Below are positions 1,402-9,379 of a stretch of DNA of 64,000 nt, piece after piece (the stretch's first letter is position 1; every line of letters starts with the position of its first letter). The translations under genes were made by a program, and so were the position numbers. The DNA comes from Candidatus Latescibacterota bacterium (GTDB taxonomy: Bacteria > Latescibacterota > UBA2968). The stretch lies in assembly GCA_965116885.1 (NCBI GenBank), contig OZ220741.1, positions 1,312,001 through 1,376,000 of the forward strand, in the 5' to 3' direction. The notes under the pieces were generated by a model. It was not told the DNA's origin, searched no databases, and saw only the letters and a program-made list of their open reading frames with translations.

Positions 1402-3153
1402 CTATTGGATACGTGCCTTAATTTCCTTCCAAATTACGTTTGCCCGTGCCTTAAGGTACTCCTCATATCGGTCCTTAACCGTCCCGTTATCCTCTATAAG
1501 TTCGTCATAAGGGACAAAATGGGACTCAATACGGTTCTTCAACTGCTCATCCGTTAGCTGATCATTCTTTTTTATATCGTCCAAGTACAATGCAGGTTCT
1601 TTTCCGCCCAGTATGATGTTGGTGGATTTTCCAATCAGGACAGTATTGAGACCATGATTGATGAGATCAGAACCAACTATTCCACCGTCCACCAGCACCT
1701 TTCGTGGAAATACATGATGTTTGTCAAGTTGCTTTTCTTGCTCTAAATCTCTGATTTGGCCAAGTGTCAATCGTACTTCCGTAATCCAATCCAAGGAACG
1801 ACCATTATCGATGGTAAGGGCTATAATAGCCTTACCAGAAGAAGATGATCTTCCAATAGGCTTATTCTGATTACATAAGTCTTTCTCTCCAATCACCTGC
1901 GTGTCCTTAAATATGCGCGCATTTCTTTTTATTTTTTTTCCCTCTTTTATATCTTTAAGATTTTCTCGAAGATCTTTGAAGTCTTCGTATAAACTATCGT
2001 TCGCCTGTTTTTCATAGCGGTCTGAAAAGAAAGACCACCAAAGATACTTAGTTAGAAGTTTTCTAGCTGCTGCCTTATTAATTGTATGAATACTATCAAA
2101 TTCGTCGTATAAAGCGGCGATTACATAGACGGGTGGCATACGTGGAAGTATGCCTTTAGTTGGAACGCCGTTGTCTTCCAAAAACTGTAGTGTAGTGTCA
2201 AGATTAGACTCGACCATATCCGCGTTCTCTGTTCCGGTAATAAAAAGATAATCCAGTGCCTTGCGAAAGTTGTTGTCCTTGGGGGGCAGACCACCCTTCA
2301 AACACGCAATCTTCAATAGGCAATCGCCTATCTCTGGAATCCAGCGTTCTTTATCATTATAAAAGTAGTGTTTAATCCTATCACGCTCTTCGTGGAATCG
2401 CTGAATGCGTTCTCTCAGTTTAATGTCTGTTCTAATATCCAGTGCTTGTGCAACAGCTAAGTCAAATGCCGTAACTATGACTGACGAACTGTTTGTTTGA
2501 ACAAAAATAGAGGCAGCCTCATCAACACCAATCCCTTTGAACTTGGCGAACCAGATTTTGTACTCTTCCAGTGGTGTTTTTAATTCATTTTCTATAGAAC
2601 GTCGCAGATCTCCAGCACTTGAGGAATCTTTGGGTATGGCCTTTTCGCACCACTCTTCTACACCAGACTTTGAGTCGTGGGCTGGCGGGTCATAGAGAAT
2701 ACTCACGGGGATTACGTTGTCCGAGAACTCGTCTTGCGGATTAATATCTTCCTCAGAACTCTCTGGTCGATGTATCACCTCTTTTATTTTCATATTCTCG
2801 TTTTGCAAATCTTTAACTTTTATGTAAAATCGTCTTTTACCTTCCCCCATAAGTCCTTGCCAGAGTGATGTTAGCCGCTGTTGACCGTCCAAGATAAGAT
2901 TTTTGGCGTTCTCTATGTAGACGTCATTGCCTTGTATTTCTCGCTTACCGAATTCAGGTCCCGATTCGACCAGCAATATGGTCCCTGTTGTTTGTCCTCG
3001 AAGGACAGCTTTCAGAAAGCGTGCTGTTCGCATGTCGTCCCAGACGCGACTCCGCTGGAAATCGGTGAGGGCGAGTTCGCCCTCCGCCATTTCGTCCATC
3101 CAGTCTTTGACCGTCTTGTCTGTATAGTCTGGATTCATCATAGTGTTCTCCAA
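1402..3153 (-). CDS. DUF262 (DGQQR, ParB-like NTPase) + C-terminal HNH nuclease, GmrSD/SspE-like
   Basis: DFQRSRVW, LILDGQQRLTSL and IFVQTN motifs; C-terminal DKHHVFP...N...TN His-Me finger pattern. Confidence 0.8.
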   Translation of the reverse strand: MENTMMNPDYTDKTVKDWMDEMAEGELALTDFQRSRVWDDMRTARFLKAVLRGQTTGTILLVESGPEFGKREIQGNDVYIENAKNLILDGQQRLTSLWQGLMGEGKRRFYIKVKDLQNENMKIKEVIHRPESSEEDINPQDEFSDNVIPVSILYDPPAHDSKSGVEEWCEKAIPKDSSSAGDLRRSIENELKTPLEEYKIWFAKFKGIGVDEAASIFVQTNSSSVIVTAFDLAVAQALDIRTDIKLRERIQRFHEERDRIKHYFYNDKERWIPEIGDCLLKIACLKGGLPPKDNNFRKALDYLFITGTENADMVESNLDTTLQFLEDNGVPTKGILPRMPPVYVIAALYDEFDSIHTINKAAARKLLTKYLWWSFFSDRYEKQANDSLYEDFKDLRENLKDIKEGKKIKRNARIFKDTQVIGEKDLCNQNKPIGRSSSSGKAIIALTIDNGRSLDWITEVRLTLGQIRDLEQEKQLDKHHVFPRKVLVDGGIVGSDLINHGLNTVLIGKSTNIILGGKEPALYLDDIKKNDQLTDEQLKNRIESHFVPYDELIEDNGTVKDRYEEYLKARANVIWKEIKARIQ

Positions 3154-4013
3154 ATACGATTAAGCAGATCGTCTACCAGTTCGCCAATCTCTTCGAACTC
3201 CAAGACGCCAATCTCTCTGGACGCAGCGATGTTGCTGAATCGGCGCAGTACTTTTGTCAATCTGCTGGCAGTTCGTAAAGGCGTTTTTGGTTTCGCCTTA
3301 AAGTGCTTCGCCAAGCTGTTGACGAAAGCGTCCTGTACATCTACTGATCCAAACACTGATCCTCTGGACACAATCATAGTGACCAGATTTTCCCAGTATT
3401 GCTGATTGGTTCGAACAACATCCAATAATGCTGCCCTATCCTCGACACCATCCCGTTTAAGGATCCGGGCAACTATTCGTTCCCGCCACCATGCACGTCC
3501 GAATGAAGGATTCACAAAGACGCTTTTGTTCCCACGTGCCCCAGGCAATCCGCTCATTCGTCTGATTACAGTTCTTACACAGTCATCAATGCCCTTAGCA
3601 TCCTGAGTAACAAGAGCTCGGTCAATTCTCTCGTCTCCACCCTCAGTCCTCCCTCCATTCGCTGCAAGCCAGTACGGTTCAATCCCATCTGATCTAATGT
3701 GTTGCAACGTGACTCCAGCCCAAAAGGAAATCCGGCAAGCTATCCTTGGAGGTACGTGAGACCATATTTCATACGCCGCTTGTTCCTGGTCTCTGGTCAG
3801 ATCCTTAAAAGATTGTTCAGTAAGGGGACCGGGAAATAGCTCCACGATTTCACCAGAAGTTTTGGAAACTTCTTTATCCATGAAGGACAAAAAATCTTCG
3901 CTGTCTTTCACTGCAACGAGGAAGTCACGCTGGTAGTCACTACCTTTTTCGGACAGCAGATTTTTATGCAGACGGGTGAATTCACCTTCATTGAGTTCCG
4001 CATAATTAGTCAT
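3138..4013 (-). CDS. Hypothetical protein in the putative DNA-modification operon (reminiscent of DUF6339)
   Basis: 291-aa ORF coupled to both neighbours; ACRISFWAGVT and FGRAWW segments recall the DUF6339 RLW...RLWW pattern (from memory, unverified). Confidence 0.6.
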   Translation of the reverse strand: MTNYAELNEGEFTRLHKNLLSEKGSDYQRDFLVAVKDSEDFLSFMDKEVSKTSGEIVELFPGPLTEQSFKDLTRDQEQAAYEIWSHVPPRIACRISFWAGVTLQHIRSDGIEPYWLAANGGRTEGGDERIDRALVTQDAKGIDDCVRTVIRRMSGLPGARGNKSVFVNPSFGRAWWRERIVARILKRDGVEDRAALLDVVRTNQQYWENLVTMIVSRGSVFGSVDVQDAFVNSLAKHFKAKPKTPLRTASRLTKVLRRFSNIAASREIGVLEFEEIGELVDDLLNRIWRTL

Positions 4014-4015
4014 CT

Positions 4016-8023: not shown

Positions 8024-8029
8024 GTTGTA

Positions 8030-9379
8030 TTACTCAGTGCAATCGCAAGGCAGAACAGTATTGGCAAAACGAGAAAGATCATCCCCTGTCTTGCTGCTGT
8101 CAGCTAAAATATCGTAGGAAAACTCACTCGATGCACCGAAGAACCCGATGAAACTTGTCGCGTCAGGGTTCTTCCGCTCTCGATTCTCAAGTTCCAGGTC
8201 TCGCCCGTACTTGTTTTCCATACTCGCCCACCAATCAATTGTGCATGGCGTATCAATAGTCGGCCCGAAGTCTCTAATCTCGCGCTCTTTTTGATTTTCC
8301 ATTGCTTCGTGTATTTGCGTCAGATTGCCAATGCCTTTGAGAAAACAATAGACACAATTAGAAAGTGCGCCATTTGGAGAGAGTTCCAAACCCCAACCTT
8401 GTTGTTGCCAAAAATCATTAACATCTTCTCGCCCTATGTGCATCTTTGTAAATGGCATATAGACGTGTTCACCTTCGTATCCTTTGTTCGCGTGAGGATT
8501 GGATGACCTGGATTCTACTCTGGCGACTCGCAGTTGTTCGTCTCCACGCAAACCAATGAAAGCAACATATTCAATACCCCCATCGCCGAACCACGCTTTC
8601 TGCCCGAATACTTTGTCCTTAAGCAATGCGTTTTCAAAGGGACTCGCTGGTGCAGAGAAGTCACGATAATACTGTTTCGGACGGCAGGTTGGTCGGCTCA
8701 ATACGAATCTTTTCTTTTGAAGAAGCACATCTTTAGGCACACCGCCCCCATTACGTATATGGCTTTTGTGCATTTGGTCAGTGTCAACCTGCGATTCTGG
8801 AAGCCCATGTCCCAAACGCGGGATGCTTTTCTTGCTTGCAAACCAGTCTCGGAGAAACTGACGGGTAATTTCCAGCTTGAGGGATAGTGTGCAAACGCGG
8901 GTAAACTGATTCGGCAAATATGCTTTGTTTGAAAGCATTTCCTCAAAAGCCTCACCGCGCCACTGGAAGCCATCCGGATTAGTCTCTGAGAAGGGATGCT
9001 CATTGACTAGGCGGTAGGAGGAGATGCGGCGCCATTCTCCCTGCCGTGCGTCTTCGTAGGTTTGGAATTGGATGAAGAAGAAGGGGATACCGGCTGCTTC
9101 TACGCGCTTTTTGCACTCAGCGGCGAACTTGTAAGTCTCAGGGTGTTCGCACGAAGTGTTGTTGAATACCACTACATCACCGCGCTCTTGCTTAAGAAAT
9201 CCATTTTCTAATAAGGTGAAAAGTAGCATGCCACTGGAACGTCCTCCAGAAAACTTAACGACATGCGGGAGTTCTTGGTGGTATTTGGAACGATAACGAA
9301 AGGAGTAGGTTTTATCAGGATCATAGTGTTTGGATTTTTGTAATTTTCTCGATATTGAGAGTTTAGGAATAGCCTGCAT
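8030..9379 (-). CDS. PAPS-reductase-family PP-loop protein (DndC/SspD-like), probably Fe-S binding
   Basis: FSGGRSSG PP-loop, NTSCEHPETY, RVCTLSLK, IGLRGDE, NCVYCFLK, C-terminal PCDC; AAGGGGG RBS. Confidence 0.8.
   Translation of the reverse strand: MQAIPKLSISRKLQKSKHYDPDKTYSFRYRSKYHQELPHVVKFSGGRSSGMLLFTLLENGFLKQERGDVVVFNNTSCEHPETYKFAAECKKRVEAAGIPFFFIQFQTYEDARQGEWRRISSYRLVNEHPFSETNPDGFQWRGEAFEEMLSNKAYLPNQFTRVCTLSLKLEITRQFLRDWFASKKSIPRLGHGLPESQVDTDQMHKSHIRNGGGVPKDVLLQKKRFVLSRPTCRPKQYYRDFSAPASPFENALLKDKVFGQKAWFGDGGIEYVAFIGLRGDEQLRVARVESRSSNPHANKGYEGEHVYMPFTKMHIGREDVNDFWQQQGWGLELSPNGALSNCVYCFLKGIGNLTQIHEAMENQKEREIRDFGPTIDTPCTIDWWASMENKYGRDLELENRERKNPDATSFIGFFGASSEFSYDILADSSKTGDDLSRFANTVLPCDCTE

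Follow-up and report, generated by a model that had tools for sequence, protein, structure and literature searches.

A six-gene cluster in a Latescibacterota genome that looks like an undescribed relative of sulfur-based DNA-marking defence systems

Six genes at positions 1402 to 9379 of a 64,000-nt stretch of DNA from a Candidatus Latescibacterota bacterium (contig OZ220741.1, positions 1,312,001 to 1,376,000; hereafter the window, in which all positions of the locus are numbered) look, from their predicted products, like an undescribed relative of the sulfur-based DNA-marking antiviral systems. The conserved unit within this cluster consists of five genes, g1 to g5, and the sixth, g6, which encodes a candidate nuclease, is a swappable accessory. 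The interpretation we favour, with belief and doubt in about equal measure, is that the cluster is a mobile sulfur-based DNA-marking defence system in which the products of g1 to g5 write a mark and that of g6 reads it. All six open reading frames (ORFs) lie on the minus strand, with exactly the coordinates given in an earlier note on the window, which had been made from the sequence and its ORFs without database searches.

g1, 8030-9379, minus strand: 449 aa, PP-loop/PAPS-reductase-superfamily sulfurtransferase-like protein
g2, 6872-8023, minus strand: 383 aa, IscS/NifS-type (DndA/SspA-like) cysteine desulfurase
g3, 4851-6869, minus strand: 672 aa, GHKL (Bergerat-fold) ATPase
g4, 4016-4876, minus strand: 286 aa, partner protein
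g5, 3138-4013, minus strand: 291 aa, partner protein, divergent DUF6339 member
g6, 1402-3153, minus strand: 583 aa, DUF262 (GmrSD_N) protein, candidate accessory nuclease

The earlier note had described six co-oriented, tightly packed genes in an AT-richer island, and both parts of this description are borne out. Gaps of 6 nt (g1/g2), 2 nt (g2/g3) and 2 nt (g4/g5) and overlaps of 26 nt (g3/g4) and 16 nt (g5/g6) separate or join the genes, and a terminator scan found no minus-strand terminator-like site within the cluster. At 46.4%, its GC content lies below that of the remainder of the window (52.8%) and is lower than in any other of 113 sliding 8-kb windows, so that the cluster forms the most AT-rich 8 kb of the whole stretch. 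No near-identical DNA was matched in E. coli genomes or plasmids.

The definition of the core comes from the recurrence of these genes in other genomes. A search with a g1 profile of contigs representing one genome per species gave 146 relatives, the best 80 of which were taken with 10-kb flanks and assessed for gene content by tblastn with the six window proteins; the locus counts in this study refer to these best 80 of the 146 related loci. All five genes g1 to g5 are present at 63 of the 80 loci. The complete g3-g4-g5 triad is found at 70, g2 at 68 (it is absent from the other 12) and g6 at 28. The order g1-g2-g3-g4-g5 occurs at 38 loci, the same order followed by g6 at 15, and g1-g2-g6-g3-g4-g5 at six; at L010, L026 and L055 the locus is truncated where the contig or the fetched flank ends. 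Spacing is equally close elsewhere, with median gaps of 2 nt between g1 and g2 and 3 nt between g2 and g3, and median overlaps of 4 nt at both g3-g4 and g4-g5. The genes have also diverged together: in the 59 five-gene loci compared, the distance matrix of g1 correlates with those of g3, g4 and g5 at 0.70-0.77 and with that of g2 at 0.57, and those of the triad members correlate with one another at 0.78-0.80 (Mantel P=0.002); this is so despite the mixture of phyla in the g1 tree. Conservation of gene order across genomes, a check that the earlier note had proposed, was therefore found for g1 to g5; the six-gene unit that it had envisaged was not, since g6 is present at only 28 of the 80 loci.

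The unit appears to be mobile. The 80 loci belong to 12 named phyla, and in a tree of g1 these phyla are interleaved, which argues for repeated horizontal transfer of the whole unit, and the flanking genes are not conserved but differ from locus to locus. Identity between g1 proteins of different phyla is 70-81%, which points to intense recent exchange together with strong constraint. The wider g1 family comprises 1360 clusters at E≤1e-3, the best 120 of which are 68-100% identical despite belonging to different phyla. Many titles of the source genomes name Poribacteria, Entotheonella or 'Poriferi-' taxa, which we take to be lineages known from marine sponges; these source lineages and the identity among g1 proteins suggest exchange within a shared habitat.

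Several loci depart from the common arrangement. At L060 (12534-17732) four genes lie between g2 and g3, two of them unknown and the others encoding a superfamily 2 helicase and a second GHKL ATPase, and at L066 (12439-15380) an insertion sequence with an rve integrase splits g6. A second, divergent system, comprising a g1 of 36% identity with g3 and g4, stands in tandem at L046 (10001-20897), and a convergent second g6 and g5 lie beside the first system at L051 (16210-21265). At L065 (3887-19163) three triads surround a single g1, with no g2. One ORF of that locus (8133-9956), of 607 aa, contains g4-like and g5-like parts in one frame, a natural fusion which argues that g4 and g5 act together.

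Besides g6, two other kinds of accessory gene recur. A PbeABCD-like four-gene set is present at nine of the 80 loci (PADLOC matches of 1e-146 for the PbeA-like and 7e-47 for the PbeC-like product), and a DndB-like gene (Pfam DndB, 6e-27), accompanied by a small unknown partner, is present at eight. At least one accessory kind occurs at 43 loci: 36 of these have g6 or Pbe-like genes, which would be reader or restriction modules, and seven have the DndB-like gene only. A PADLOC scan of 105 of 118 further neighbour ORFs (at most 700 nt away and at least 180 aa; 13 were dropped) revealed no further recurrent module. Twelve of the 105 matched at E≤1e-6, scattered among the loci; three are ABC-transporter-like ATPases, and others include a Type IV enzyme (L029), an HNH gene (L076), a dGTPase (L052) and the helicase and second GHKL gene of L060.

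Profile matches place the product of g1 among the PP-loop proteins of the PAPS-reductase superfamily but assign it to no named family. It scores 18.9 bits against Pfam PAPS_reduct (PF01507), under the cut-off of 22.5; the named Atlas clusters nearest to it carry PF01507 (score 0.94); and its PP-loop, SGGRSS at residues 44-49, is a variant of the SGGxDS type that is invariant in its relatives. Its only matches in PADLOC are to SspD at 4.2e-9 (34.5 bits, no stretch passing alone) and to BrxP at 1e-5. SspD is also matched by nine of ten diverse members of the g1 family (best 3.7e-13) and is its closest defence family; these scores show homology to SspD and fall short of establishing membership. 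NCBIfam gave just two weak PRK13795-type models (5e-7 and 1e-3), with no SspD model among its matches at E≤0.01; no DndC family was matched at E≤0.01 in PADLOC or NCBIfam; and a profile search of PDB sequences found nothing at E≤0.1. Relatives down to 31% identity keep the PP-loop and five cysteines, Cys163, Cys342 and Cys345 (a CxxC motif), and Cys445 and Cys447 (a C-terminal CxCT[DE] motif).

A profile search of 1.84 billion representatives identified 1254 g1 relatives at E≤1e-3. The longer relatives found, five clusters of 808-823 aa, are all fusions to C5 DNA methyltransferases, and two partial fusions were found as well. The fused proteins (P0173, P0160, P0156 and P0391-P0394) contain distant g1-family domains; in P0173 a DNA_methylase domain (4e-70, residues 8-386) is followed by the g1-like domain. 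These fusions point to DNA as the substrate of g1 and to a requirement of its domain for a partner that targets DNA, and they also leave room for a base, rather than the backbone, as its target. No fusion of g1 to a GHKL ATPase or a desulfurase was seen among the 1254 relatives. In tblastn searches g1 gave three weak partial matches to plasmids and matches to 67 phage records, at 25-33% identity and over the N-terminal PP-loop part alone. The phage proteins, which are PAPS-reductase/NinC-like and are encoded in 49 of the 67 cases by Salmonella phages, were rejected as members of the g1 family, that N-terminal part being all that the two have in common.

The product of g2, the putative sulfur donor, matches Pfam Aminotran_5 (class-V aminotransferase) at 9e-86 and, in PADLOC, SspA at 3.5e-145 and DndA at 3.9e-145, and it has the pyridoxal phosphate-binding lysine motif SGHK (201-204) and an active-site loop GAACS (325-329). 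These features clearly predict an IscS/NifS-type cysteine desulfurase, although in NCBIfam both IscS (448 bits, cut-off 643) and DndA (386.7 bits, cut-off 480) remain under their equivalog cut-offs.

In the triad, the g3 protein falls under the Pfam cut-offs (HATPase_c_3, 6.7e-5; 23.4 bits against 25), and its PDB profile matches, to Hsp90, MORC3 and MutL, are all weak, but the motifs of the Bergerat fold are present at ELIQNSLDA (41-49), DNGIG (125-129) and, in the ATP lid, GSYGVGH (152-158). All of 50 relatives share the residues E41, N45, D48, D125, G127, G129, G152 and G155, which substantiates the label of GHKL ATPase given to g3 in the earlier note and places it, as judged by motif, in the GHKL superfamily. 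The N-terminal ATPase domain (about 20-200) is followed by a conserved middle part with RNGMWITD (378-385) and AEGPMHD (422-428). Beyond this lie a linker (about 500-545) that is variable and of low complexity and, at the C terminus, a domain of about 110 aa in which the motif DE.xD.TC is conserved. PADLOC matches g3 to PDC-M33A (1.3e-36, residues 30-466) and g4 to PDC-M33B (2.8e-9, residues 19-254), the two genes being adjacent and overlapping.

No Pfam or NCBIfam family was found for g4. Its AlphaFold2 model (mean predicted local distance difference test score, pLDDT, 92.3) has a beta-rich N-terminal and a helical C-terminal part; Foldseek gave a best PDB match at E 9e-3 with TM (template modelling) scores of at most 0.26 and no BFVD match at E≤1e-3, and in the Atlas only unnamed clusters were matched. 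The g5 protein scores 22.2 bits against Pfam DUF6339, where the cut-off is 23.2. Since DUF6339 is matched by 32 of 51 members of the g5 family at E≤0.01 (best 1.6e-9), the family is probably a divergent branch of DUF6339, an assignment that rests on the Pfam model; hhalign gave no match between the g5 family and a single Lactococcus DUF6339 protein. The AlphaFold2 model of g5 is all-helical (mean pLDDT 92.2, pTM, the predicted TM score, 0.89), its best PDB match in Foldseek has E 0.65, and its conserved arginines are R94, R129, R147, R151, R152, R160, R173, R177, R217 and R257. PDB sequence-profile searches with g4 and g5 gave nothing meaningful. The modelled folds of both proteins are thus confident yet have no match among solved structures. 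The earlier note had called the two proteins unknowns; this still holds with respect to solved structures, but only in part for family relationships, given the match of g4 to PDC-M33B and of g5 to DUF6339.

The g6 protein matches Pfam GmrSD_N/DUF262 well above the cut-off (58.8 bits against 33.2; 1.1e-15), as do all 27 members of its family, and contains the motifs FQRS (32-35, with FQR invariant) and DGQQR (89-93, invariant). Its C-terminal part has a conserved His-Me-finger-like pattern comprising KHHVFP (478-483), NHGLN (499-503), N512 and H545, but HNH_2 matches only two of the 27 family members and DUF1524 none. The description of g6 as a DGQQR-HNH nuclease is therefore upheld for DUF262 and DGQQR, by profile and by invariance, and for HNH by motif only. 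In PADLOC it matches PDC-M55C (1.5e-10) and HEC-05 (2e-9), and among solved structures its nearest relative is 7p9k (PDB profile, 2.8e-13), a DUF262 protein which we take to be BrxU; at E≤0.1 the PDB search matched two DUF262 proteins and no other chain. Enzymes of the DUF262 type, 7p9k included, are known as readers of modified bases. The relatives of g6 form two well-supported clades that track its position in the operon.

The catalytic motifs are thus intact in g1, g2, g3 and g6, and these motifs, like the gene content, the conserved order, the co-divergence and the kinds of partner gene at other loci, were observed directly. We hypothesize that, in cells in which the cluster is expressed, the g2 product would draw sulfur from cysteine as a persulfide and hand it to g1, where the five family-wide cysteines probably provide an Fe-S cluster and a mobile C-terminal CxC tail. 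The g1 protein would spend ATP to activate its DNA target and would insert the sulfur, the most likely product being a backbone phosphorothioate like that made by DndC and SspD. The g3 protein, with g4 and g5, would stand in for DndD/DndE or SspC/SspB as an ATP-gated DNA clamp or scanner that picks sites and presents DNA to g1. The g6 protein, a predicted DUF262 NTPase with a His-Me-finger-like nuclease, would use the mark to separate self from invader and would nick or cut invading DNA in an SspE-like manner. The chemical steps, the physical complex, the site specificity and an anti-phage effect are all what we infer from the observations above. In favour of a sulfur mark of this kind we count the partner genes found elsewhere, since a DUF262 nuclease, PbeABCD-like genes and DndB-like genes are those of phosphorothioate systems. 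On the same side we count the conserved order and co-divergence of g1 to g5, the intact catalytic motifs, the kinship of g1 with SspD, the desulfurase that 12 loci do without, the methyltransferase fusions, the g6 clades that track operon position and the g4-g5 fusion.

A number of observations weigh against this interpretation. All 80 related loci are from metagenome-assembled genomes, and at 37 of them none of the three accessory kinds lies within 10 kb. Five loci truly lack the triad, namely L037, L041 and L078 with g1 only, L064 with g1-g2 and L080 with g1-g2-g6; Pfam gave nothing informative for the genes beside them. Pfam, PADLOC, NCBIfam, PDB and Foldseek searches brought to light no domain of DNA-binding, nickase or nuclease type in the triad proteins. 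For g6, neither PADLOC nor NCBIfam gave a family named SspE, so that profile matches do not identify g6 as an SspE orthologue, and enzymes like its nearest solved relative, 7p9k, can attack modified invader DNA in a host without any mark of its own. DndB-like and DUF262 proteins are, to our knowledge, not exclusive to phosphorothioate systems. The triad, moreover, is known without sulfur genes. A tblastn search with g3 gave 16 plasmid records (nine Ligilactobacillus, six Lactococcus and one Deinococcus). A conjugative plasmid of L. lactis, NZ_CP102523.1 (L082, 6893-10518), contains a GHKL gene (655 aa), a 286-aa gene and a gene for a 'DUF6339 family protein' in the order of g3-g4-g5; the second is a homologue of g4 (hhalign probability 96.7%, E 4e-10), and the cassette lies between a gene for an AlwI-family endonuclease and AbiGI/AbiGII. 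On the Deinococcus plasmid a g3-like GHKL gene is followed by a non-significant g4-like match (E 0.78). No PAPS-reductase-like (g1) or desulfurase (g2) gene accompanies the plasmid cassettes, and PADLOC lists the triad genes as a defence candidate in their own right (PDC-M33). The ability of the triad to stand alone in a defence setting weakens the case for it as the motor of a writer, and it is unlikely to be only the writer's helper; it may be an effector arm rather than the writer's motor and specificity module. The phosphorothioate-like system with its own motor/specificity module that the earlier note had proposed therefore survives in part: the cluster is not a described system, its genes co-occur and its partners are of phosphorothioate type, but its core has five genes, and the supposed module is a catalogued one that also stands alone.

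It is accordingly possible, though we consider it less probable than not by a good way, that g1 and g2 alone install the mark, that the GHKL triad is a restriction or abortive arm which this mark holds off self DNA, and that g6, the Pbe-like genes and further neighbours are extra layers. Apart from the plasmid triads in their defence neighbourhoods and the PADLOC candidate, this would agree with the separability of the blocks g1-g2 and g3-g4-g5, the triad coming first at L047, insertions lying between the blocks at L055 and L060, and g6 lying between them at eight loci. It would also agree with L080, which retains g1-g2-g6 without the triad, and with the three triads and the g4-g5 fusion around one g1 at L065. 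In the Tdp system tdpC alone suffices for phosphorothioate synthesis, according to the sections of PMC12914056 drawn on here, a point that likewise tells against a writer of five components. No nuclease or effector domain is recognised in g3, g4 or g5, however, and the separate accessory genes at 43 of the 80 loci would be redundant if the triad itself restricted DNA. Moreover, g1 co-diverges more tightly with the triad than with its sulfur donor g2, and the methyltransferase fusions suggest that g1 needs a DNA-targeting partner.

Other explanations concern the nature of the mark, or whether there is one system at all. The mark might be a thiolated base, in DNA or possibly RNA, as made in tRNA by TtcA, ThiI and TtuA, with the other proteins targeting or reading it. 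The position of g1 outside the DndC, SspD and BrxP equivalog families, its weak PADLOC matches and a cysteine pattern of its own (CxxC and C-terminal CxC) would fit such a product, as would the fusion of its relatives to base-flipping C5 cytosine methyltransferases and the reading of modified bases by DUF262 enzymes like 7p9k. We nevertheless think this improbable: SspD is the sole defence family matched consistently by g1 relatives, the PbeABCD-like and DndB-like partners have so far been tied to phosphorothioate systems (PMC12707154, in the sections used here), and our literature searches yielded no case of such a system thiolating a DNA base. The particular form in which g1 writes a sulfur mark chemically unlike the known phosphorothioate, for example a thiolated base, on DNA delivered by a GHKL clamp complex of two new folds is one that we regard as unlikely, if not negligibly so; if it were true, the fusions to base-flipping methyltransferases would imply a flipped-out nucleotide as the substrate. 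A defence island that brings together three independent units, a sulfur pair, a PDC-M33-type system and a Type IV DUF262 enzyme, seems very improbable. Defence genes do group together in islands, both the triad and DUF262 enzymes are found on their own elsewhere, and accessory genes differ between loci, but chance assembly is hard to reconcile with 63 of 80 loci, in 12 phyla, where g1 to g5 follow one another in a fixed order only a few bases apart, with distance matrices that co-vary, with g6 clades that track operon position and with flanking genes that vary. Least credible of all is a sulfur-incorporating biosynthetic or metabolic operon with no part in defence, for example for a thio-cofactor or a symbiont natural product. 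By themselves g1 and g2 fit sulfur trafficking, and the genome is rich in secondary-metabolite and symbiosis-type genes (among them a 3354-aa polyketide synthase, sulfatases, and leucine-rich-repeat and tetratricopeptide-repeat proteins). The linked DUF262 nuclease, PbeA/PbeC-like, DndB-like and Type IV restriction genes speak against this, however, as do the fusion of g1 relatives to DNA methyltransferases, the Abi and restriction-modification genes that adjoin the plasmid triad, and the island-like composition and spread across phyla of the cluster.

Two further features flank the operon.

Hairpin, 1339-1369, no strand assigned: 14-bp stem with T-runs on both sides, 33 nt past the stop codon of g6
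Region upstream of g1, 9380-9613, minus strand: intergenic, presumed operon promoter region

The hairpin was listed on the plus strand by the terminator scan, its minus-strand T-run having been read from the sequence directly, and is a probable bidirectional terminator common to g6 and the convergent sulfatase gene that flanks the cluster on this side. The upstream region contains no ORF of at least 80 aa and gave no minus-strand match in a sigma-70-type scan. On the other side the flanking genes are a small ORF (9614-9943, plus strand), a gene for an NYN-domain protein with a putative RNase fold (10066-10758, plus strand) and a nucleoside transporter gene. The small ORF and the NYN gene are divergent from g1 and upstream of it; they were considered as parts of the system and rejected, as neither adjoins g1 at any of the 80 related loci. 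No tRNA gene is present in the window. The type I polyketide synthase (19335-29399, minus strand) has Pfam domains for two KS, two AT, DH, methyltransferase, ER, KR and carrier protein. A leucine-rich-repeat protein of 1441 aa (38616-42941, minus strand), with a weak Peptidase_M66 match, and two tetratricopeptide-repeat proteins (31973-34549 and 36618-38450, both minus strand) are of the eukaryote-like repeat type that is frequent in host-associated bacteria. Two paralogues of about 650 aa containing DUF6785 and DUF6784 are encoded at 34596-36584 and 43405-45351 on the minus strand (Pfam, 1e-103 and 4e-111).

It is tempting to speculate on what the cluster would add if the interpretation that we favour is correct. 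The sulfur-marking systems of the cited papers, as far as the sections used here describe them (Dnd, Ssp, BREX type 4 and Tdp), have different sets of ATPase and DNA-recognition proteins with the same type of sulfur inserter. The present operon would add further machinery to these, a GHKL ATPase and two confident but unmatched folds, and would provide the PDC-M33/DUF6339 candidate, which occurs also on plasmids of dairy Lactococcus, with its first functional context. We found no paper on PDC-M33, and hence no mechanism or activity on record for it, nor did our literature search give one on DUF6339. Some loci combine this core with an SspE-like nuclease, others combine it with PbeABCD-like genes or a DndB-like gene, and in others it stands by itself; it would thus allow a clean test of the ways in which writers and readers of marks on the DNA backbone are combined. 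Should the mark turn out to be something other than a phosphorothioate, DNA would have a modification not described before, and a thiolated base would make it the second type of sulfur epigenetic mark in DNA, spread over at least 12 bacterial phyla.

Literature searches gave no published description of this gene set. As the sections of PMC12914056 used here state, the neighbourhood search reported there needed a P-loop NTPase adjoining the DndC/SspD homologues, and by that requirement a GHKL-based system would be missed; the legend of its Figure 2 contains the entry 'top, topoisomerase', perhaps a protein of the GHKL type. The terms GHKL, HATPase, MORC and DUF262 are absent from the main text of a comparison of Dnd systems (PMC10853773), and GHKL is not mentioned in the portion used here of a survey of BREX (PMC12839542). 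Profile searches equate the cluster neither with Dnd, Ssp or BREX type 4 nor with any other system that has a name in PADLOC or NCBIfam, and they uphold the statement of the earlier note that DndD, DndE, SspB and SspC are not recognisable.

Like the cluster, SspABCD-SspE, a system of single-strand phosphorothioate modification whose nuclease SspE senses the mark, has a desulfurase, a PP-loop enzyme of the PAPS-reductase family, an ATPase, a further DNA-handling protein and, in the same operon, a DGQQR DUF262 nuclease. In place of SspB (DUF4007) and SspC, however, the cluster has a GHKL ATPase and two proteins of unmatched fold: none of its six proteins matched the SspB nickase or the SspC ATPase in Pfam, PADLOC or NCBIfam, and whereas SspE carries a C-terminal DUF1524, g6 has no Pfam match to that domain. 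The double-strand phosphorothioate systems, DndABCDE with DndFGH or PbeABCD, follow a logic that the cluster shares, in which a PP-loop sulfur inserter is joined by a desulfurase, an ATPase and a DNA-recognising partner (in the cluster a candidate one); common to both are also an optional DndB-like gene, an optional PbeABCD-like module, a dispensable desulfurase and many loci without a restriction partner. In Dnd, too, the dndA/iscS desulfurase is dispensable (PMC12914056) and modification modules are commonly found uncoupled from restriction modules (PMC10853773), as described in the sections of these papers drawn on here. Unlike Dnd, the cluster is without a DndC equivalog, a DndD/CxC ABC ATPase and the ribbon-helix-helix protein DndE; DndD, DndE, AAA_23 and SMC_N gave no match to any of the six proteins in Pfam, PADLOC and NCBIfam, and the sole ATPase of the writer candidate is of the GHKL type. 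BREX type 4 and TdpABC resemble the cluster in combining a sulfur- or PAPS-reductase-based DNA mark with ATPase machinery other than that of Dnd, but the match of g1 to BrxP is weak, and BrxC, PglZ and BrxL were matched nowhere in the cluster (Pfam, PADLOC, NCBIfam). The ATPase of TdpABC, in which TdpC is the writer and TdpA/TdpB the restriction pair, is a ring translocase and is not known to be of the GHKL type. To PDC-M33 the likeness lies in the matches of g3 and g4 to PDC-M33A and PDC-M33B, and the difference in the plasmid cassettes having no sulfur genes. The N-terminal DUF262 part and the length of g6 recall Type IV enzymes of the GmrSD/BrxU type, 7p9k among them, from which it differs in the tie of its clades to the operon and in a C-terminus without a convincing DUF1524 or HNH match.

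The general plan of phosphorothioate systems, as set out in the sections of PMC12707154 used here, is a writer composed of a PAPS reductase, an ATPase (the ABC-type DndD or the ring-forming SspC) and a DNA-recognising component, with the desulfurase either linked or encoded elsewhere; the restriction branches are dndFGH/sspFGH, sspE (DUF262-DUF1524) and pbeABCD. The core described here appears, by analogy, to have the logic of such a writer, with a third and unrelated type of ATPase, and it occurs alongside two of the three restriction branches known so far and alongside the known type of regulator.

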